A stretch of DNA of 64,000 nucleotides. Origin: Picochlorum sp. SENEW3. Its lineage: Eukaryota. Under the pieces are notes generated by a model. The model was not told the origin of the DNA and did not search any database. It worked only from the letters and a program-made list of their open reading frames with translations. The DNA is taken from positions 496,001 through 560,000 of the forward strand of contig CP120462.1 in NCBI GenBank assembly GCA_034226945.1, given 5' to 3'. Shown here one piece after another: positions 2,828 to 41,500 of this stretch. The stretch's first letter is position 1; each line of letters begins with the position of its first letter. The translations under genes were made by a program, and so were the position numbers.

Positions 2828-3243
2828 CTATGTAAGCATGTAGCCAAGTTCGCGTGGCCAAATTGCCCATGCATGGGCAATCATGATGATTAATTTCTGG
2901 GTCCTGAGTCTCTTTGTCTGGCATTTGTAAACTGAGTAGGACACATGACAGTACTATGCCATATTGTAAAAGCATTATTACAGATGTATCAAAGTTAATG
3001 TCACAGGGACTAGCATGCCTGAAATGTGAAAAAATTCTGTACAAACAATGCTGTGTCTTCCTGCGTGCCATCAGATGCATAATCCCACCGAGAGAGCTGA
3101 ACAGGCCACCTTTTCTCTGCACTTGCGCCCCACAAGTAAAGATCACTCGACAGGGAGGCGAGGCAGGTTCGGCCTCTTGGGACAAAGAACGCCGATGCAA
3201 TCACATTTTCAAGGGAAGAATATCCAACAGTCAACAACCGATA

Positions 3244-3867
3244 TTACTTTGTATTCCCGTTGAAAACCACCTTATTGCGGCATTTTTGAACAGATGGTCC
3301 TCCAAACTGAAACGTCGCCTGGTGCCCATGCCTAACTCCATAGCAAAAGAACGAAATCTCCACACTCATGTTTTCGTAGGACGTCACCCTCTCTCCATCA
3401 CCAATGTTACCATTGTTGGCCTTGTATAATGTTCTGTCAACCTTGTGGGTCTTGCCTGGCTTTAGTGTGCACCACTGGAGCTGCTCAACATTATAAGAAG
3501 AAATCCCGCCACAATCTGTATACTTGAGCGCTGGTATAAATTTTTTTGTCACAACATCATTGAGCATGTTGTAAACATCAACTCCGATACTCGTAGCTTG
3601 GTCCCGAAGGACCGCAACTGATGTCACTCCCTCTGCCCCGCTCACAGACCAGTCCTCACCATACACCACACGTTTATAAAATGTTTCCGTCCATGTACTT
3701 GATGGGCAAGATCTGTTCTTGAATTGAACGATTCCCGTCGATTCCTCCTGTAGCTTGAAGGTCAACGTGTCGAATTTTGTGATCTGATTTAAGCAGTTTG
3801 GCTGTTGTGCTTTCACGACGGTGCATAAAATCAGCGAAATGCAGGCTAAAATCAATATGCCCTTCAT
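3244..3867 (-). CDS. Secreted protein of unknown function (207 aa), paralogue of 8793-9475
   Basis: Signal peptide MKGILILACISLILCTVVKA. Cys spacing and motifs are shared with the gene at 8793-9475. Confidence 0.75.
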   Translation of the reverse strand: MKGILILACISLILCTVVKAQQPNCLNQITKFDTLTFKLQEESTGIVQFKNRSCPSSTWTETFYKRVVYGEDWSVSGAEGVTSVAVLRDQATSIGVDVYNMLNDVVTKKFIPALKYTDCGGISSYNVEQLQWCTLKPGKTHKVDRTLYKANNGNIGDGERVTSYENMSVEISFFCYGVRHGHQATFQFGGPSVQKCRNKVVFNGNTK

Positions 3868-4620
3868 CGCAGTTTTTTGTGCACAGAAAGACAAGGGTTT
3901 GAAAGCTGTCTATGCCCGGCTCGACTTACTACTGCTAATGTCGGAGAGATATTGTCGATTCGATCTTCCGACACCAAATTTTCAAACTTTCTATAAATGT
4001 AGAGAAATACTGCCAAACCGAGATCAATTGATCCGTGCTTTGCGCAAATCGGGTCACGCTCTTGTCGACACGATGTGGATACGCCCCCAGGATTGATACT
4101 GTTATTTTCACGTATCCTCTAAAGTTTTCGTGAGTTCGGCATTTAAACTCACGAAGTTGATTCGAATATTATATTATTTGGCCGCGGTACAGTGTATACA
4201 TTTTATCGAAAAATGGCACGGAGGGCATCAGAGCAGAGGCTGACGGACAGGTCTGTTTTACCAGGAGGTCAGATTTGGCATGGACATATCTTGTTAATCA
4301 GCCACCAATTGTATTACGATGGATTTAAATACACTCAGGAATGAATAAAGAGCAAAATCAGGAAGAAGCGACAAGTTCGAAGAACAATCTAGACATGAAT
4401 GTACCGAAGAAGGAACGTTGACATCTACCTCGCAAAAGCAGCAACAGACCCACAAAATCCAACTGTGCCTGACATAGTACAACTGGATGAGAGCCAACGA
4501 CAGATTCCTAAAAGCAGCAAGTAATACGGTTGTTGCAAAACAAGAGATGGCTTGATAGCACAAATACATGACTGCAATATCGACACTCGCCTCAGCCATT
4601 GGCCAACATGTATCGTGACC

Positions 4621-5016
4621 TTAAACAAAGAGTGGAACATTCCTCCGACACTTGTCGTAAAATAAATAATAACCACCTCTGCATTCTGTACAGGTTAGGA
4701 ACGATTCGTGGCAAGATTTGCAGTTCTTGAGATCGCATGGCAGACATGATGTCGAATCGTATCGAACCAATCCCTCGCCAGCTTTGCACACATTGACTGG
4801 TCTACACTGCTCCTTGCTCGCAGAGAGAGCAAACCCTGGGTCGCATTCGTCACATTTGTACGTGACGATCCCAGGGAATCCATCCGGTGGTATTTCTCGA
4901 GGGCTTTTGCAGCAGGAAATCGGTGGCCCCGCGCTAGGACATATTGAATATTCTGCTGCTGCAGAAAGCTCCAACAGGGCCAGGCCGATCAGGCTGAGAA
5001 CCAGGGTGAATCGCAT
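4621..5016 (-). CDS. Small secreted Cys-rich (CxxC/furin-like repeat) protein, copy A
   Basis: ATG-initiated signal peptide MRFTLVLSLIGLALLELSAA, followed by CxxC repeats (CDECDPG, CLPC, CKSC, CTEC). The upstream GTG extension in the ORF track lies in a predicted 5'-UTR intron. Confidence 0.8.
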   Translation of the reverse strand: MRFTLVLSLIGLALLELSAAAEYSICPSAGPPISCCKSPREIPPDGFPGIVTYKCDECDPGFALSASKEQCRPVNVCKAGEGLVRYDSTSCLPCDLKNCKSCHESFLTCTECRGGYYLFYDKCRRNVPLFV

Positions 5017-5714
5017 CTCCTCTGAAACCAACAGAACGCAATCAGGAGTAAACAAGAGTAACCATATGCCGGGATGAGGCGCAACACGAAAATATGCGCA
5101 AACACGGTCCGACCACAGCGGAAGGAGGTGTGCCACCCATAAGCACGGCGCGTACCTTGAGGTTTGCTACAAAGATTGATCCTTTCTTCTCACAAGTTTT
5201 TCTTTTGGAAAATATTGAGTATTACGAGTGTAACTCATTCAATGAATGTTTCGCAATTTAAACAAGCTCGACCGGGGAGACTACCACGATCGATGGCTCA
5301 TCGCGATGCAACCCCATTGCCGGCCGGCCGCGGGAACCCATAGGCCCCACAACGGGGTTCTACTGCGGGGTACCGTGCACCGGTGCACCAGATTGGCCCA
5401 TTGGTGGACAAATATTTGCAAATGAGCCATCTCTACCACGATCGTGGTAGTCTCCCCGGTCGAGCTTGTTTAAATTGCGAAACATTCATTGAATGAGTTA
5501 CACTCGTAATACTCAATATTTTCCAAAAGAAAAACTTGTGAGAAGAAAGGATCAATCTTTGTAGCAAACCTCAAGGTACGCGCCGTGCTTATGGGTGGCA
5601 CACCTCCTTCCGCTGTGGTCGGACCGTGTTTGCGCATATTTTCGTGTTGCGCCTCATCCCGGCATATGGTTACTCTTGTTTACTCCTGATTGCGTTCTGT
5701 TGGTTTCAGAGGAG

Positions 5715-6119
5715 ATGCGATTCACCCTGGTTCTCAGCCTGATCGGCCTGGCCCTGTTGGAGCTTTCTGCAGCAGCAGAATATTCAATATGTCCTAGCGC
5801 GGGGCCACCGATTTCCTGCTGCAAAAGCCCTCGAGAAATACCACCGGATGGATTCCCTGGGATCGTCACGTACAAATGTGACGAATGCGACCCAGGGTTT
5901 GCTCTCTCTGCGAGCAAGGAGCAGTGTAGACCAGTCAATGTGTGCAAAGCTGGCGAGGGATTGGTTCGATACGATTCGACATCATGTCTGCCATGCGATG
6001 ACATTAACTGCAGATACTGCTTCGAATCGTTCATGACGTGTACAAAATGCAGGCGTCGCACAAGGTTTTACCCTGACGGCAGGTGTAGGTGGAGAGATCC
6101 ACAATGGGACGACTATTAA
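5715..6119 (+). CDS. Small secreted Cys-rich (CxxC/furin-like repeat) protein, copy B; predicted 5'-UTR intron 5576-5709
   Basis: Identical to copy A up to CLPCD, then a different final module. CAAG|GTACGC...TTTCAG|AGGAGATG marks a UTR intron. Confidence 0.8.
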   Translation: MRFTLVLSLIGLALLELSAAAEYSICPSAGPPISCCKSPREIPPDGFPGIVTYKCDECDPGFALSASKEQCRPVNVCKAGEGLVRYDSTSCLPCDDINCRYCFESFMTCTKCRRRTRFYPDGRCRWRDPQWDDY

Positions 6120-6570
6120 GTCATCTCTTGTTTTGCAACAACGGTATTACTTGCTGCTTTTAGGAATCTGTCGTTGGATCTCAGCCAGTTGTACTATGTC
6201 AGGCACAGTTATCTTTTGTGGGTCTATTGCTGCTTTTGCGAGGTAGATGTCAACGTTCCTTTGTCGGTACATTTATGTCTAGATTGTTCTTCGAACTTGT
6301 CGCTTTTTCCTGATTTTGCTCTTTATTCATTCCTGAGTGCATTTAAATCCATTTTGATACCATTCAGAAAGGCCTGATGAGCAAGTTATGTTGATGTCCG
6401 TGCCAAATCTGACCAAAACATCATCAATTTGACTTGTATGAACACACTGGGCCACCACCAGGAAGAAACATCATCAGCTACATAACCTCCAGGTACCCTG
6501 TATGCAATTGATATAGTTTCTTATCCCACTTCCTCCCCGTGAATTCTATCTTTCTAGCATTCAGAAGTAC

Positions 6571-7026
6571 GAAGATGTCCCAATCATCCTTCTCTGGGGA
6601 ATGGGTTCAACCTTCAACCAGAGGTGCAATGGTTGGCTTGCCTTTGATGACATATCATCTACCATCAAGACAAACAATATGTGGTACAACATTGATATGG
6701 GACCAGCTCATATAGTCATATTGAGCGATTATGTAATATAAAGTGACAATTCTATCGTGTACAAGTGGTTTGATGAAGACTTGTCCAATGTTGATAGAGG
6801 ACAAATGCCATGGATTATTGTTGGATTCCATGCCCCTAAGTATCACACACAGATCGACCATTACAGGGGGAATCTAAATGTACAAGAACCTTTTGAACAT
6901 CTTATGCTGAAGCACAATGTGGATGTTGTATTGAATGGCCATGTTCATGCATATGCACTCTCCATTAGTGTATGCTTTCGAACCAGATACATGTGGACTA
7001 ATTTACATGACTGTTTGGGCTTGTGA
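6571..7026 (+). pseudogene. Purple acid phosphatase-like pseudogene fragment
   Basis: NMWYNIDMGPAHIVILSDY, YKWFDEDLSNVDRGQMPWIIVGFHAPKY and VDVVLNGHVHAY. In-frame TAA at 6739-6741. Frameshift near 6955 before VYAFEPDTCGLIYMTV. Confidence 0.85.
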
Positions 7027-7395
7027 ACCCTTGAAGGACTGTACAAGCAATGTGTGGACTAGTACTAGAATATTATGGAAGTCGTCGACATGGAGACCTG
7101 CTGTTTACCAGCCAATTTACTGTGGTATTGGTGTTATCGATGAAAGGACATCATTCTGCTCTCCTCGAACCTTGATCGTCCTTGCAACAGTCACAAGATG
7201 GCCTTTGTCAATATTTTCTGCATCATCTTCATCCATAACCAGAATACATGGATCTAGATGATGAAGAAGAGCTTGTGCTCTTGTGATCTAGAGCACAAGC
7301 TTGCGGGCGAACCGGTTCGCCTTGTAGGCCAACCCCAATCCCCTATGGAATTGGTCCCCTGGGCCGCGGGAACCACATTGGCCATGGCCATGGCC

Positions 7396-7744
7396 TATTT
7401 GCAAATGAGCCATCTCTACCACGATCGTGGTAGTCTCCCCGGTCGAGCTTGTTTAAATTGCGAAACATTCATTGAATGAGTTACACTCGTAATACTCAAT
7501 ATTTTCCAAAAGAAAAACTTGTGAGAAGAAAGGATCAATCTTTGTAGCAAACCTCAAGGTACGCGCCGTGCTTATGGGTGGCACACCTCCTTCCGCTGTG
7601 GTCGGACCGTGTTTGCGCATGTTTTTGTGTTGCGCCTCATCCCGACATATGGTTACTCTTGTTTACTCCTGATTGCGTTCTGTTGGTTGCAGAGGAGATG
7701 CGATTCACCCTGGTTCTCAGCCTGATCGGCCTGGCCCTGTTGGA
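7396..7744 (+). repeat. Direct repeat of 5413-5761 (upstream region, UTR intron and signal peptide of the Cys-rich genes)
   Basis: 349-bp match at offset 1983. I count four substitutions, all inside the predicted intron. Confidence 0.95.
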
Positions 7745-8102
7745 ACTCTGTTTCTTCACAGCAACTGAAGCGCGATGCCCGAATAGCGGCAGAATCATTA
7801 GCTGCTGTGAGGCAATCGACGTCAAACTATATAAGAAAGGAACAAAAATAAATTACAATTGTGAACGTTGTGATCCAGGTTATAAAGTGAGCCCATCCAA
7901 GAACCAATGCATTCCTGATATTCCAACTGCTTGTCTGGAGGGATATGGACCTAACTTTCAAAAAAATGGCACCTGCACAAAATGCACCGATCCAAACTGC
8001 AAATCTTGCTCTTATGAATTCAACGATTGTGTGATATGCGCAAAAGGCTACCAGTACAACGTTGACAGAGGCAATTGCGATCCGATCGTTGAACAACAGT
8101 AA
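7698..8102 (+). CDS. Small secreted Cys-rich (CxxC/furin-like repeat) protein, copy C
   Basis: Same leader MRFTLVLSLIGLALLEL. The mature part is diverged but keeps the Cys scaffold (CP..ISCC, CERCDPG, SKNQC, CTKC, NCKSC, CVIC). Confidence 0.8.
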   Translation: MRFTLVLSLIGLALLELCFFTATEARCPNSGRIISCCEAIDVKLYKKGTKINYNCERCDPGYKVSPSKNQCIPDIPTACLEGYGPNFQKNGTCTKCTDPNCKSCSYEFNDCVICAKGYQYNVDRGNCDPIVEQQ

Positions 8103-8792
8103 CCATGCTCACCCCTCCTGGTTGATTACCAAACAAGTCTGCTGAACATGGGAATTCGTGTTGAATTAAACACTTCCGAGAGGGTCACAGACACACTTTA
8201 TAATTAAGCCAGCATGTGATCTGTTCACCCACAAGACTGGTCCAAATCTTCTGTTTTGTGGGAACAAGACCCATGTAGAAGAGTGGCAGCAAAATTTTTT
8301 GGTCTCTGTCAAGGTCATGCAGACGCGCAACCACAGTATAAATGTCTTTATAGCAATGTGTTTTTTTTTGTCGAATCGTTTCGATATACACTCAGAATGT
8401 CTCTCTGTAATAGCTAATCTTTGTCTATATACCCACAGGCTACTAGCAGCAGCAGTATACCAACAGACAAAGACTCCAACAACCATTTGGTTTGCTTTAA
8501 GCAAACCTATAATCTAGGGTAAACATGCCTGCGGTGTGGTGGCAGTAGTGGTATACAACTCATTTAACCCACTGAAATGTGCTTGTAGAAGAGTAACGTT
8601 ACTCTGGGTATAACCCCCTGGGCCCCCGGGGGCCCGTTCCGGAACGTGGACCGATCGGTATCCGATACCGCAATATGTATCACATGAGATGGCAAACATG
8701 AAACCCAAGGGTTTCAGTCGTGTCAAAGATAGATAAAATTTAAACCAATATTCACTGTTTCCACGTTGAAACAGACGCAAGACTGTTCAAGC

Positions 8793-9475
8793 ATGATGCA
8801 TCGACTGGTTGCACTGGTTCTGCTGGCCTCCTTGGTATCAGCACGAAGGGAGTGCGTAGACGGGGTTACCTATTTCGCGGAAGCAGGCAAAACAGATATC
8901 TATAGGTGGAGCAGCAAAGAGCCAACCACACTTAAGAAGAGAACGGTGGGTCGTCTCGATAGCGTTGTATCCAGGCAATGTTGTTTTTCTCTGTATGAGC
9001 TGTAACCCAAGAAAGGACAACCTTTGCATGACTGCAGTGCGACCCCAGCAAGTACTATGTGGAAGAGAAACGCGAACTCTCGAATCTATGGGATACGAGG
9101 CGCTATGAAGACTATCCCATTAACTCCTTTTCGGAGCGACAGCAGCTGTCCCAAGTCGTGGAAGTGGCATTTCTAAACAATGTCCTTCCCTACATCAATT
9201 CGGGAAAGAATGAGAGCATCCTCAAATGTGAAACAGGTGTTCATTCTCTTATTGTTTCTGATTATCAACTTTGCTACCTCCAACAGGGAAAAGAGGCCAA
9301 TGTGAATGGCAAAACCTACACCTCTACTATTGAAATTGATAGGGATGGGAGTGGCAAAGACAAGGTATTTGGAAAGTACAGCGTCGTGGTTTCATACTCC
9401 TGCAACGGTCAGGCTCGAGAGCGATCTGTGGGCTTTACCTTCCAAGGAAAGGCCACAATAGAATGTACTGCCTGA
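8793..9475 (+). CDS. Secreted protein of unknown function (196 aa); exons 8793-8945 and 9038-9475
   Basis: Signal peptide MMHRLVALVLLASLVSA. ACG|GTGGGT...TGCAG|TGC joins two listed ORFs in frame. Homologous to 3244-3867. Confidence 0.75.
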
Positions 9476-10272
9476 CACTGTCTAGTGTTGATGTTGGAGA
9501 TTGGGCTGCCCAACGGATTTGGAAGGTCTATCTTCCATCCGTGGGATAGTGTGATACATTCCAATACCGTGCGATTTGTGTCATATCTCAGATACCGTGG
9601 TGGCGATAATTACTGGATCAATTGTAATGCCTCTGGACACACATTGGTCCACCTTCAGACTAACTGTGAGGGCCCCAGATTTGGGTCCCAGAGCTACGTC
9701 ACATCATTCCATAGTATTTAAAAGATTATTAAAATGCATATGAAACCCACGTCTTTGGCTCCACAAGGCCAGAAGGCTCGATTTTGGCATGCATTCACGA
9801 CAGTCACCATACTGTAGTATGGCAGCGATACCAGCATACCATCTACATAGAATGTCCCCTTATATATATCAGCATCGATGCTGTCCTCTGTTGATGACAG
9901 GGTTGATTGATACAATTTTAAATGTATTTCCATTCGTGTGTGAGAATCCTTGAGCATGAACATTTCCAGATCATGGGCAGCTGCAGATCCAGTCCGGCGT
10001 GACTTTGGAGGTCGCGCTCGATTTCATGTTTTGAATTTTCAAACAATCGTCCCATACCTCTCCAGAAACAAACACAACAATTTCTGTTGCTAAAGTATCT
10101 CTTAAAAACTATAATAAAAGAGATATGACACGCTGTTGACCGTTGTTGCCTCCGTTCCTTGTGGTATTGTTGTTGACAATTTGGAACGCCCTCCAGTTGA
10201 CCTTGAGCAGGCTCTAGAGAGGGAGCATTGTTGTTGTTGAAGTTGTTGTAGCAAATACAAATCGTTGCAGAC

Positions 10273-34923: not shown

Positions 34924-36052
34924 TTACTCAAGTGGGGTGAATGTGGCAACTCCTTGTGTAACAGATCCCTCCTCTGGAACATCAGATGGAATCTCTCTGG
35001 CATCCAAGGTCTCAACAATAGCTTCAGGGGCTGGAGCATCGACAGCTGGAGCTGGAGCATCGACTGTTGGAGCTGGTGCATCCACTGCTGGAGCTGGTGC
35101 GTCAACTGTTGGTGCTGGTGCATCCACTGTTGGAGCTGGTGCATCCACTTCTGGAGCTGGGGCATCGACTGTTGGAACTGGTGCATCGACTGTTGGAGCT
35201 GGGGCATCGACTGTTGGAACTGGTGCATCGACTGTTGGAACTGGTGCATCGACTGCTGCAGCCTGTACATCAACTGCTGGGGCTGGTACATCCACCACAT
35301 CATCAGCAACAAAAACAGGCTCTGTGACAACTGGCAGCTCTGCAGCAACAGCTTGCGCCTCTGCATTCTGAACTGCTCCTGCCTTTGCAGGAGCAGTGGC
35401 TGTGAAAGCCACTGGGTCACTGCAGACCATGCTTTTTGGAAGAAGTGTTGCAATGTAGCAGCTGTAAGCTCCAGCGGCCACATCTCCAACTTCAAAGGGA
35501 ATAATCTCCTTTGCATCTGTGTACTCGCCAGTCACAATCTCAGAAGAGGGCTCCACAAAGCAAGATTTTCCATTTTCCACACAGAATGCAGCGTATTCCA
35601 GTTTTCCATTGTATGACACGGTCATTGGAGCCTCAAATGTTCCCGTCCATGTCGCGCCAGTGGCATCGGCCTCCACATTGTGTGGCACATATAGAGAGAG
35701 TCCTGCACAGTAGTACGTATCAAGAGTTAGTCACGATGATCTTTACTCGCATTGTAAACATTTTTGCTCGTTTTCATGTTTGCTTCTAGATGCCGAGTCT
35801 TTCACTGGCCGTGTGTACGGTCGTTTCGAAAGACGACCATGACTCCAGTCAAACAATCAGATAGAGTCTCAATCACACGTTTCCAGCAGAGATTCCCGCA
35901 CACTCCTCAACTCGTGTGCAACACCAAACTCCAAAAAATCAAGAAAGCATCAGAGACCTCGTCTATCCGAAGCCTGGTCACCCACCTGCAGCAGCATTCG
36001 CCGAAGCAAACATTCCAGCCCCAAGGGCTGCAACCATTCCAATCTTAATCAT
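34924..36052 (-). CDS. Secreted protein with a small Cys-containing domain and a Pro/Ala/Thr-rich repeat stalk; exons 36052-35986 and 35702-34924
   Basis: Signal-peptide exon MIKIGMVAALGAGMFASANA splices in frame (GCAG|GTGGGT...TGCAG|GA) to ORF 34924-35688. Confidence 0.7.
35024..35295 (-). repeat. Coding 21-bp tandem repeat (about 12-13 units, PAPTVDA-like)
   Basis: Units such as TGGTGCATCGACTGTTGGAAC are visible on the plus strand. Confidence 0.9.
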
Positions 36053-38561: not shown

Positions 38562-41500
38562 CTAAATAGTGAGGAATGATCCGCAGATGGGATCGTCTCT
38601 GTAAATTCCGAATTGCTGTAAACAGATTTCCCACATGCCACTAGGAAGCATGGCAGCTCCTGCAAGGGCTCCAGTGAAACCAGCATTGTTTTCTATTCCC
38701 ACCATGGATGCGTCATTTGTTCGTTCGTCAATATAATAATCGCTTTTGCCAGGACCATGGACCAACGCGCCAGTCAGTTGATATGTGTCTGGGTCGGGAG
38801 ATAGATAGCTTGTTACCCTGTTGCAGACACCTGGGCGCGCTGGGCACGCAGCAGCTCTGTCTTGAGTTCGTTTGGGTGGATTATGTCCTTGTCCTATCAC
38901 CATACTTCGACCTGCATCTCCCATCATGTAGCGAACTTGTGAGAGTCCCCAGCACTTGTATGCTTGTGATTTGGCAGAGTCTTTGTGCTCAATGAGGTCT
39001 GCATACATGAAAGCAGACATGGCAATGTTTGCAGTTGACCCCAAGGGTGCACTGAATGCATTATATGCTCGACCTCGTCGTGTATAGTTTGCTGCATTAT
39101 TTGCACACATCCAGTTGCGGAGGAAGTCTTCGCTGTGCTTGACAAAGGTTGAGTTGCCAGTTTCTTGAGCCATCAAGACATTCAGAGGCCAGAAGACGTT
39201 GTCCCAATCGAATGCGTACTTCCAAGAAGATGCTGATGATTCTTCTTCTAAATACGATATGTAATGAGTATACATATCGTCCAGATATCCCTGCTCTTTT
39301 GTTGCTTTGTATAGCCAGCCTGCTGCCCAGGCAAGGTCATCATACATGCTAGACGAGTTGTACAGCTCGGACAGGTTATGGTCGCCCCTATCGAATCTAA
39401 ACTTGGCACCAACCGAGTCTTCATAAACTTCTTTGGCTTTGTTGAGAAGTTTTTCTGTGTACTCGGGAGTCTCATATCCAGATTCTCTGAATAAGGTGGA
39501 GGCAGCGGCAAGTCCAGCTGACACAGATCCACCCAAGTCAGCACCATAGCCTCCAACGCTTGAGTAGAGGTCTACAGCAAACGCTTCTCTTGTTCTGGCA
39601 TCTTCTGGGCGATACCAGAGCTCTGGTTCGCGTTCTACGTCACCAACCCTTGTGACTAACAGTGATTTATCTTCCAAAGGAATTCTACGATGAACCTTCA
39701 TGAGATAATCTGCTCCAGTTTTGACAGAGTCCATCAAATAGTCTGTTTGGCCAGATATTTCGAATGCATTATGGAATCCCATGAATCCCCAAGCAAGCAC
39801 ACTAGTTGTAAAGGCAATTGGACTGGTGGCTTTGATGTTACCTCCTTTCATACCTGAGACCCAACCCCCTGAAAGGTCCCATGGTGTGGATGTTGCAAGC
39901 TTGAGTTCTATCTCAGACATTGCGAATGGATCTGATAGTCCTGCAAATGGATCAGAGGAGCCACCAAACGGATCTGAGGAGCCACCAAACGGATCTGAGG
40001 AGCCAAATGGATCAGAGGAGCCAAACGGATCAGAGGAGCCAAACGGATCTGACGAACCACCAAACGGATCTGACGAGCCAAATGGATCAGAGGAGCCAAA
40101 TGGATCTGACATGCCACCAAACGGATCAGAGGAGCCAAATGGATCTGACGAGCCACCAAATGGATCTGACGAACCACCAAATGGATCTGAGGAGTCAAAT
40201 GGATCTGACGAGCCACCAAATGGATCAGATGCTCCCAAAGGAGCAAGGTTGCTGAATGGATCAAAGGAAACTGATGAGCTAGATGAATCAGATGAACTGA
40301 ATGGATCAGCAAAAATATCCTGCTCTTGAGAAGCGGTGTCGACTGCAGAGGCAAAAGCATCAGATGCATCACCAGATTGCAACAATTTCCTTCCAAAAGG
40401 CTGACTATATCGTGAACCAAAAGGCTGTACAGCTATGTTGTCAAGGAGAAGCGTATCATTTATGTTCTCTGCCAGATAAACAGCCGATTGTGTTTCACCA
40501 GCAAATGAACCTGTAAACAAAACTGACCAGATTAAACATGCACAGATACACCATGATCTGAAACTGCATTCACGTACTTTGTCTCCAAGAGACCCTGAAG
40601 TCACCAGGCAATTGGCCAACCCGTTGTGTATCAAAAAAGTATAAGCTGTTGCTCAGAGCTTCACTGTAGTCATATGTCCTAGGATACAGGAGCCACACTA
40701 GAACAACACCAAATATGCTCAAAAATGTTGAGATGAACATCATCACACGGCACACCAAGGTGAAGAACAAAGGTGACCTGTAAATAGCGTACTGGATCAA
40801 AAGATAGAGCGGGACCAGGTTGTACGCAATGAAGATGATTGAAATTGCCAAGGGTGTGTCGGTCACCTCTCCTCTAACGTAGGTGATCAAACCAAAAATC
40901 AAAGTGACGATTGAGAAAATGAACCAAATACTTGCCATCCAGAGATCGCGTATTGGTAGATTGTTGAGCTTCTGCAGACCTTTTGCAGTCACCTTGAACA
41001 CAATAGTGCCAGCCAACCACCTTCCTACTGTTGCTCGATACATAGCTTTCAGGAATGCCCACCACAGAATGCTGTTTGCTACAGATGCAAACCACATCGA
41101 CTGCAACAAGAGGATGAATGTTTATATAGATGATTTGTGGAAGCATGAAATACATAAATCACATACCTTTAGATGTCTCAGTGATCTTGTGTAATACATC
41201 ACCATTAACGTTGCTGGGTAGTAAACAGTGACTGCTATGGCACACCATATGTTGATGACAATGGGGAAAACACCAAACCAAACGGTAACCATAGGTACCA
41301 ACATGAGCAAGGGTGTACCTATAAAGGCTGAGAAGTATGACAAGGCCACAGAGCCATAAAGCCAGCGCATGAGGAGGGATAAGCCTTGGGCGCCTTTCCC
41401 AAATGTTGGATTTCTCACCCTGTTGTAGAATAACTGAAAATGTCCCTTGGCCCATCTCGATCTCTGTTGAAAGCAATTTCTCACCTCATCAGGAGCTTCA

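Follow-up and report, generated by a model that had tools for sequence, protein, structure and literature searches.

Three genes (A, B and C) of Picochlorum sp. SENEW3, lying in a window of 64,000 nucleotides (the whole stretch of DNA analysed; contig CP120462.1, positions 496,001 to 560,000), belong to two types of secreted Cys-rich proteins with a common leader. Homogenisation of this leader within each gene cluster extends even to pairs of an AB-type and a C-type gene, the bodies of which are synonymously saturated; copying of the C-type body with its 3' flank from cluster to cluster is more recent than that of the leaders. A, B and C are genuine genes, members of a secreted Cys-rich family of a Picochlorum-type green alga. 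As a whole, the data are quite likely explained by a constitutively expressed family of secreted, disulfide-rich binding proteins that evolves by ectopic gene conversion.

Members and architecture of the family

The ORFs of A (4621-5016, minus strand; 131 amino acids, a signal peptide, 14 Cys and one coding exon), B (5715-6119, plus strand; 134 amino acids) and C (7698-8102, plus strand; 134 amino acids) share the protein start MRFTLVLSLIGLALLEL; behind this signal-peptide start, C continues with a body from an old lineage of its own. The genome contains five leader-linked copies, more than the three from which the earlier note had started. The additional copies, D (C-type; G000:C11:565685-566089, outside the window) and E (A-type), are located 61 kb downstream of A/B/C. 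Genome searches, whose counts of loci and donors are lower bounds, yielded a family of nine members, secreted Cys-rich proteins of about 130 amino acids composed of EGF-like and furin-like modules, with 14 Cys (22 in the two-module paralog) and four CxxC motifs per mature protein. The five leader-sharing copies all have intact reading frames with 14 Cys each. A single N-terminal hydrophobic stretch, and none later, was present in 9/9 paralogs. Based on a hydropathy scan, A-E have no membrane anchor and no C-terminal hydrophobic motif: the highest later 19-residue value was 0.22-0.37, compared to about 2.1 in the signal peptide.

In metagenome contigs, the exact 27-nt leader pattern had no match, and none of 157 pattern matches to protein B was confirmed; neither was any of 12 pattern matches in viral contigs, and a viral fold library gave no match at E<=0.001. 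Longer or fused forms of A were not found among 307 candidates, which is weak evidence. Long repeat proteins retrieved by a profile search were rejected as family members, having only a generic CxxC repeat in common (of six scanned, three matched VSP, in one case above the cut-off, one matched TRP and two gave no match). Among titles and abstract openings, with subscription journals and bioRxiv supplements mostly outside the search, there was no paper on this Picochlorum family.

The shared leader and its 5'-UTR intron

The leaders of B (5413-5764, plus strand) and C (7396-7747, plus strand) are 98.6% identical over 352 nt and consist of an upstream/5'-UTR exon, an intron and signal-peptide codons 1-17. 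A enters the leader homology only from 5292 and is without 8 nt present in B and C; with this restriction, the module that the earlier note had described as common to A, B and C was confirmed. The predicted 5'-UTR intron (134 nt, GT..AG; 5576-5709 on the plus strand in B, 7559-7692 in C and, identical to that of B, 5022-5155 on the minus strand in A) was found spliced in an X17 RNA contig, the leader of which does not distinguish its copy of origin. In 4/4 older paralogs, a GGTACG donor is located 159-186 nt 5' of the ATG. The abrupt divergence of C near the end of the signal peptide is real, with the boundary slightly displaced from the proposed 7744: the first difference between B and C is at 7745 and synonymous, and dense divergence begins at 7748.

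Conversion of the leader and of the C-type body

Over 325 nt of leader, A and B showed no difference, A/B and C differed at 5 sites and D and E at 3, whereas copies of different clusters differed at 9-13. Rooting with the older paralog F showed derived letters common to D and E at two sites of the leader (polarised by eye). Beneath the shared leader, the bodies of the AB-type and the C-type are only 41% identical, and pS between the body of C and those of A, B and E is 0.83-0.85. In a four-taxon comparison of B, C, D and E, 7 sites, between -258 and +10 relative to the ATG, grouped the copies by locus and 157 sites, from +56 on, by protein type, with no conflicting site; with A replacing B, the numbers were 7, 163 and 0. 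Because the two classes of sites split cleanly, with none crossing, we consider the leader to have been homogenised by ectopic gene conversion. This is the pattern of concerted evolution: in part of the gene, neighbours are more alike than same-type copies, and the incongruent sites are clustered.

The body and 3' flank of C (7748-8446, plus strand) are 99% identical to copy D. Between C and D, there are 6 differences in 700 nt of this segment versus 13 in 325 nt of leader (Fisher p 0.0017). One arm of A (4732-5292, minus strand) is identical to 5439-5999 of B, including leader, intron and codons 1-95. As the earlier note had reported, this identity ends at CLPCD; none of 20,000 column shuffles produced a run as long as its 561 nt (maximum 190).

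In the mature-domain tree, A, B and E grouped with F (100/99) and C with P0046 (88/91). P0182, a relative of C, carries a similar signal peptide. The AU test rejected a clade of A, B, E and C without F (p-AU 0.0014) but not one in which C joined A, B, E and F (p 0.07), which makes a transfer of the leader in either direction conceivable. These results support the conclusion that bodies of different ancestry owe their common expression/secretion leader to conversion, which has either placed it there or maintained it. A full read-through was possible for one genome; other strains contributed protein models and collapsed contigs, among which P0016 of P. renovo, with an A/B-type TSCLP ahead of an E-type last module, suggests a tract end that may move between species.

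Identical arms and grouping by locus could also be produced in assembly or polishing, by collapsed or mixed haplotypes. For one Picochlorum strain, PMC11092101 describes a genome that is at least diploid, polishing can equalise inverted repeats, and none of the contigs compared spans the whole stretch. An artefact is nevertheless very improbable. X1 contigs showed no difference from the unique parts 3000-4295, 6310-6787, 6765-7425 and 8375-9800; the X1 contig of the C body had a depth of 111.5 relative to 57 for unique sequence, about twofold; and the letters specific to the D/E leader occur in an X1 contig. Depths in X9 (60, 104 and 134 for C body, AB body and leader versus 31-35, i.e. about 2x, 3x and 4x) give a hint in the same direction, and P. 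renovo contains a pair of AB-type models separated by 34 gene numbers.

The last CxxC module

A and B part only in the last CxxC module, at 4621-4731 (minus strand) in A and 6000-6119 (plus strand) in B. In codons 18-95, pS among A, B and E is 0-0.02, whereas in the last module pS is 0.31-0.47 and pN 0.19-0.33 (A versus E, 0.31 and 0.19; A versus B, 0.47 and 0.33). The flanks beyond are homologous again: that of A (4267-4558, minus strand) matches those of B (6113-6414, plus strand) and E, with 7% difference over the first 250 nt; between A and E, the first 65 nt from the stop are identical and the 7% difference lies further on. The divergence thus forms a local peak, including synonymous sites, between homogenised flanks. 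The module of A is identical in an X14 contig (4529-4761), and that of E is identical in BPE23 and nearly identical in P. renovo. In A, B and E, the last module represents an island of old divergence that is stable across strains; the variable modules of the earlier note are thus old and not switching, and targeted hypermutation was rejected on the grounds of this stability. Positive selection was considered, but dN/dS in the module is 0.47-0.60, below 1, and therefore does not show it.

A 15-nt block shared by A and C (NCKSC) had been taken as a mosaic breakpoint of A. The block exists; however, E has a 15-nt run in common with C at the same place, so the match is not specific to A. NCKSC is also read in P0016 of P. 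renovo, and in the last module A stands no nearer to C than B or E do (pN to C is 0.47 for A, 0.45 for B and 0.49 for E). The change took place in B, the module of which is Arg/Trp-rich and has no second copy in the genome as far as found. Since identical amino acids alone would lead one to expect a shorter A/E/C block (P 0.008), some short conversion between the types may have happened long ago.

Surroundings of the locus

The leaders of A and B, which are arranged head to head, are separated by a GC-rich spacer of 146 nt (5293-5438, unstranded) with dense short palindromes, probably a shared promoter zone; it contains 10 GC-rich palindromic hexamers, relative to a background of 0.6 per 100 nt, and indels were found there in strain X14. 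Upstream of the C leader, there is another palindrome-rich stretch (7296-7395, unstranded; 6 such hexamers in 7296-7420), and X14 carries other sequence from 7348. The corresponding stretch of E has only 1 hexamer, and hairpin stability of the upstream stretches was mixed (z -0.76, -0.43, -3.29, -1.89 and -2.19), so the idea of a recombination hot spot stays a lead. One could imagine that such palindrome-dense, strain-variable stretches are break-prone and start polar (5' to 3') conversion, amounting to an unprogrammed shuffling device which would keep one expression/secretion module on unrelated bodies and recombine a constant N-terminal part with alternative C-terminal binding modules, in a so far undescribed family of defence or recognition ligands. 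We offer this as a speculation that is improbable.

The end of a 62-bp repeat adjoins the A unit; three ORFs neighbouring the repeat had no Pfam match, and its identity as a transposon was not confirmed. Between B and C, a patchwork (6485-7246, plus strand) is made up of three fragments (6485-6607, 6635-7160 and 7155-7246; 83-88% identity), each copied from a different place in contig C2. Stop codons interrupt the middle fragment, which derives from a purple acid phosphatase gene.

These captured pieces suit an account in which break repair at a rearrangement-prone spot joined the leader to any body in one-off chimeric duplications, with neither recurring conversion nor selection; the last modules would then be nothing but neutral remnants left by older paralogs. 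A few such duplications could give the same site pattern; the repeat end beside A, the lack of 8613-9357 in strain X9 and the last-module dN/dS below 1 agree with the account as well. It would need at least three separate recent events with individual boundaries (the A=B arms, the D=E leader and the C=D body), and it leaves the five intact frames of 14 Cys next to a decayed phosphatase fragment, as well as the persistence of the E-type module in BPE23 and P. renovo, without a reason. We regard it as unlikely.

Ectopic conversion, the preferred explanation, would work as follows. Conversion tracts would stop in the signal peptide when the partner is a C-type gene, because its body would be too divergent for them to enter; between AB-type genes, they would run on to about codon 90-95. 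The last module would resist tracts through selection for differences among A, B and E, which makes it reasonably likely that this module is the specificity determinant. Even in the absence of selection, however, conversion may fail in a segment that has drifted beyond about 20% difference. The common leader would give all variants equal expression and secretion.

Expression of several types in the same cultures

In the supplement of PMC12198440, we found gene models with the sequences of B, C, E and F at 42-159 TPM in 9/9 libraries. Reads are not cleanly assignable between near-identical copies, and the model of B, which agrees with the protein at 124 of 134 residues, wrongly incorporates an exon from further downstream. 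X17 RNA contigs lie over the spliced leader, the A-type end (4417-4662 and 4656-4806, overlapping the 3' part of A) and the C-type body (7768-8340, over the coding sequence of C); none of them reaches the last module specific to B. Several types are therefore transcribed in the same cultures, as seen in bulk RNA with the four models in each library.

Cassette-based antigenic variation employs an expression site and silent donors. A programmed exchange of this kind, with silent donors supplying variable domains behind one expression module, would fit the four different mature sequences behind a constant leader and the weak VSP/furin likeness of the CxxC modules (Pfam E 0.014-0.035, below cut-off). 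It is already largely refuted and hardly credible for this family: no leaderless or partial donor was found among the nine loci, nor any donor elsewhere in the genome when the last modules of A and B were searched as DNA (both counts being lower bounds); a leader of its own precedes each copy, and a signal peptide is present at all nine loci; across strains, the modules are stable; every library contains transcripts of the B-, C-, E- and F-type models; and there is no membrane anchor. Of the cassette-like exchange or gene conversion proposed earlier, the conversion was borne out by the four-taxon sites and the AU test, whereas the cassette system and the resemblance to variant surface proteins were not supported.

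Structure and comparison with known systems

The structural model is all beta (pLDDT 75.7). The best 10 Foldseek matches were R-spondin Fu1-Fu2 entries (best E 0.025, probability 0.94), and R-spondin entries (PDB 4c9u and 8xum) were the best neighbours in a second structural comparison too (Z 3.7, rmsd 3.5, 56 aligned residues); both sets of matches are weak. Atlas matches of 0.86-0.89 were VSP/furin clusters. On A, PF15913 scored 16 bits (cut-off 28) and PF03302 13.4 bits (gathering score 31.4); B and C were absent from the PF03302 list. Like the furin-like Fu1-Fu2 modules of R-spondin (PF15913), the proteins are small, secreted, all-beta disulfide ladders of two modules; unlike R-spondin, their first module aligns to EGF-like domains, and there is no sign of the animal partners. 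The likeness is probably one of repeat type, not orthology. The function of the family is probably extracellular binding. Tentatively, the proteins may be two-module extracellular ligands or decoys (EGF-like plus furin-like, as in the R-spondin fold) that serve in recognition of another organism or of the cell surface.

Multiple CxxC motifs, an N-terminal signal and a multigene family are features in common with Giardia VSPs (PF03302; PMC3656445), which, according to that paper, have a C-terminal hydrophobic membrane motif. The present family, in contrast, is anchorless, 130 amino acids long and found at nine loci, with Pfam scores below cut-off and several types per culture. Its closest parallel in evolution is to red/green opsins (PMC3924837) and Tigriopus GOT1 (PMC3728101), which likewise have parts converted by locus and parts protected by type, with a short island of high divergence between homogenised flanks; the 'peak of divergence' signature described in PMC3924837 matches the A/B/E profile. 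Unlike in opsins and GOT1, the homogenised unit here is a 5' leader plus signal peptide, common even to a synonymously saturated body, and the island is the C-terminal CxxC module of a secreted protein with no known function.

Conotoxin-type precursors have a constant signal, a fixed Cys scaffold and variable loops in the mature part. Our proteins resemble them in these respects and differ in that constancy spans UTR and intron by conversion, in having one coding exon and no pro-region, and in a dN/dS below 1.

Since the conversion process is already known, the value of the finding is modest. It offers a very clear-cut and compact example, from a streamlined genome in which duplicates are few. 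The 350-nt leader, with its 5'-UTR intron and signal peptide in front of unrelated bodies, is a natural candidate secretion cassette for Picochlorum, and the last 30-40 residues are the part to test in this uncharacterised secreted family found in relatives of the alga. If its members are recognition or defence ligands, they would provide a handle on the biotic interactions of an industrially used alga.

A family of small secreted cysteine-rich proteins with nine loci

Searching the 13.85-Mb eukaryotic genome of Picochlorum sp. SENEW3 (14 contigs) with the leader, a unit of about 350 nt comprising a 5'-UTR exon, a 134-nt intron and most of the signal peptide, gave five matches: genes A (4621-5016, minus strand), B (5715-6119, plus) and C (7698-8102, plus) of the window, and copies D and E. 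D (C11:565685-566089, plus) matches C at 97.8% across 1046 nt, and E (C11:567787-568182, minus) matches A at 93.7% across 1035 nt; they face each other 61 kb downstream of the A/B/C cluster. Protein searches added four older paralogs, F (C1:542105), G (C1:1497145), H (C4:892277) and I (C9:888150), for a total of nine loci. The three open reading frames and common signal peptide described in the earlier note were borne out; all nine paralogs have a signal peptide and none has a later hydrophobic stretch. Eight contain 14 Cys. Paralog I (L018:1480-2019; 179 aa, 22 Cys) carries the CxxC module twice, a form also seen in the database proteins P0001, P0005 and P0006.

All relatives bearing a name are Picochlorum hypothetical proteins. 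A profile search retrieved 224 proteins at E<=0.001, and the 150 matches listed were mostly long CxxC-repeat proteins. Among 18 short or single-stretch proteins chosen by eye from the matches listed, none bore a functional name and many shared an N-terminal C-x-I-x-CC pattern. A short P-x-hydrophobic C-terminal tail (PLLL, PKLF, PLFV, PSFA) is common among family members and absent from B and F (alignment A2). Between D and E lies a 121-aa secreted-looking ORF (L007:4719-5084, minus), whose weak PAN-domain match (E 0.0016) is below cut-off. Other ORFs of the window presumably encode light-harvesting proteins and an FeFe hydrogenase, as would suit a small green alga.

X1 contigs matched four unique parts with 0 differences. 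Per-contig depths in X1 and in X9, a strain diverged by about 3%, fit two C bodies and three A/B bodies, which is a hint only; none of the contigs compared spans the whole stretch. A passage of PMC11092101 reports one Picochlorum strain to be at least diploid and low in heterozygosity.

Separate histories of leader and body

A and B are arranged head to head on either side of a 146-nt spacer, and their identity up to CLPCD extends over 561 nt (0/20,000 shuffles). The upstream and leader DNA of B and C, noted before as near-identical, matches at 98.6% over 352 nt. The abrupt divergence of C near the end of the signal peptide is real, with the departure at 7745-7748 rather than at 7744. RNA run X17 includes a contig from which the predicted 5'-UTR intron (5576-5709) has been spliced out. 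A GGTACG splice donor lies 159-186 nt 5' of ATG in all four older paralogs (background, 50/1320 windows), so this intron probably belongs to the ancestral gene structure and is no special module.

Over 325 aligned letters, the leaders of A and B are identical, those of A/B and C differ at 5 sites, those of D and E at 3, and those of different clusters at 9-13. Among informative sites in B, E, C and D, 7 pair B+C against E+D, all at -258 to +10 from ATG, 157 unite B with E and C with D, all at +56 or beyond, and none pairs B+D; with A substituted for B, the counts were 7, 163 and 0. C and D differ at 13/325 leader sites versus 6/700 in the body and 3' flank (Fisher p 0.0017). Synonymous sites of the C body have reached saturation relative to those of A/B/E and of F (pS 0.83-0.85); F is closer to A/B/E (pS 0.46-0.47). 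A tree built on the mature domains of 20 proteins placed A/B/E with F (100/99) and C with P0046, an unnamed protein (88/91). Constraining the leader-sharing proteins to one clade without F was rejected (p-AU 0.0014); a clade of C with A/B/E/F was not (p 0.07), so that the leader may first have passed in either direction.

Sequence has thus moved between paralogs on several occasions: from arm to arm in A and B, from one type to the other inside a cluster in the case of the leader, and from cluster to cluster in the case of the C-type body.

The last CxxC module is an island of divergence

Among A, B and E, divergence is 0-2% across codons 18-95, and the next 28 codons show pS of 0.31-0.47, pN of 0.19-0.33 and dN/dS of 0.47-0.60. 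Starting at the stop codon, A and E are identical for 65 nt; beyond this the 3' flank is 7% different in each of the three pairs. Synonymous sites have diverged as much as replacement sites, which makes the last module an old island spared by conversion and not a recent burst. The module is stable between strains. That of E recurs unchanged in BPE23 (P0004) and with one residue altered in P. renovo (P0016); that of A is identical in a contig of strain X14 and also present in an X17 contig, there with 9 differing letters and 3 gaps. In P0016, an A/B-type TSCLP precedes the E-type module, as would be expected if tract ends move. A passage of PMC3924837 takes such divergence peaks as the mark that selection leaves where conversion operates, and an excerpt of PMC3728101 presents a comparable case. 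Divergence by itself could block conversion; we infer that selection spared the last module.

The 15-nt block shared by A and C exists but is not the A-specific breakpoint it had been taken for, since E too has a 15-nt run with C there (B, only 7). A is no nearer to C in the last module than B or E. A, E, C and D share this state, and B has moved away from it. Because runs >=15 are rare when synonymous codons are resampled (0.8% of trials), an old micro-conversion between types may lie behind it.

Surroundings of the cluster

The A/B/C cluster looks break-prone. Between B and C, 6485-7246 consists of three fragments of contig C2 (83-88% identity), from places about 2-3 kb apart and in their original order; the middle one derives from a purple acid phosphatase gene and is broken. 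The database model P0015 joins B to an exon within this stretch. Adjoining the A unit, 4195-4256 is the 62-bp end of a dispersed repeat, possibly a mobile-element end, with at least 8 other genome copies, elsewhere of about 300 nt and preceded by an AT-rich run; three neighbouring ORFs had no Pfam match. Strain X9 lacks 8613-9357, a deletion beginning at 8612 inside a GC-rich palindrome cluster (8590-8715) resembling those that precede the leaders. The A/B spacer contains 10 GC-rich palindromic hexamers, and the stretches ahead of C, D and E contain 6, 5 and 1; in 200 kb of background the density was 0.61 per 100 nt, and 8 windows there reached 5-6. The stretches next to the leaders differ among copies and in strain X14, and their folding scores were mixed; that they start conversion tracts is hypothetical.

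Outward-pointing secreted-looking genes flank the cluster at 3244-3867 (minus) and 8793-9471 (plus) and are distant relatives of each other (27% over 77 aa, pairwise E 2e-6). The former has two more partial relatives, on C4 and C6; the latter runs over two reading frames, through an intron or a frameshift, and is lost in X9. Two other genes of the window contain coding tandem repeats, at 34980-35336 (21-nt units, VDAPAPT-type) and 39923-40254 (18/21-nt units, NGSEEPP-type).

Expression, fold and possible role

The earlier interpretation was half right: gene conversion is supported, cassette exchange is not. At the DNA level, a lower bound, the last module of B matched only itself and that of A only A, E and B, and no cassette system was found. 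In an excerpt of PMC12198440, bulk RNA gave TPM of 42-57 (C), 46-75 (E), 78-159 (F) and 83-118 (B) in 9/9 libraries, with gene models matching C, E and F in full and B for 124/134 residues, A and D having no identified model, read assignment among near-identical copies not clean, and bulk RNA compatible with one type per cell. The suggested likeness to variant surface proteins (VSPs) is limited: VSPs require a hydrophobic motif at the C terminus, and only one of them is expressed at any time (a passage of PMC3656445); the proteins of A-I lack such a motif.

No Pfam family was matched at cut-off. A model of mature B (28 sequences) was all beta (pLDDT 75.7, pTM 0.47). R-spondin Fu1-Fu2 entries took the top Foldseek ranks (best E 0.025, none at E<=0.001). 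A wide structure search paired residues 54-112 with R-spondin 2 (Z 3.7, rmsd 3.5 over 56 residues) and residues 9-54 with EGF-like domains (Z 2.0-2.9); Atlas neighbours were VSP/furin-like clusters (0.86-0.89). These matches are all weak but agree with an EGF-like plus furin-like disulfide ladder. Because such modules usually bind other proteins, we read the predicted proteins as putative secreted binders whose last hairpins would form the variable face. Among possible uses, biotic interaction has the best odds, somewhat less than even, and is preferred to a role in the cell wall or in metal binding.

Titles and abstract openings on Picochlorum gene conversion, secreted Cys-rich proteins, the secretome, algal furin-like proteins and signal-peptide conversion yielded none on the family. 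Excerpts of PMC6141220 report tandem expansions in the genus and contain neither 'cysteine' nor 'gene conversion'. Conversion is a known process; the family is undescribed. Its small secreted Cys-rich algal proteins evolve in concert through ectopic gene conversion, and their last module is a probable specificity island.
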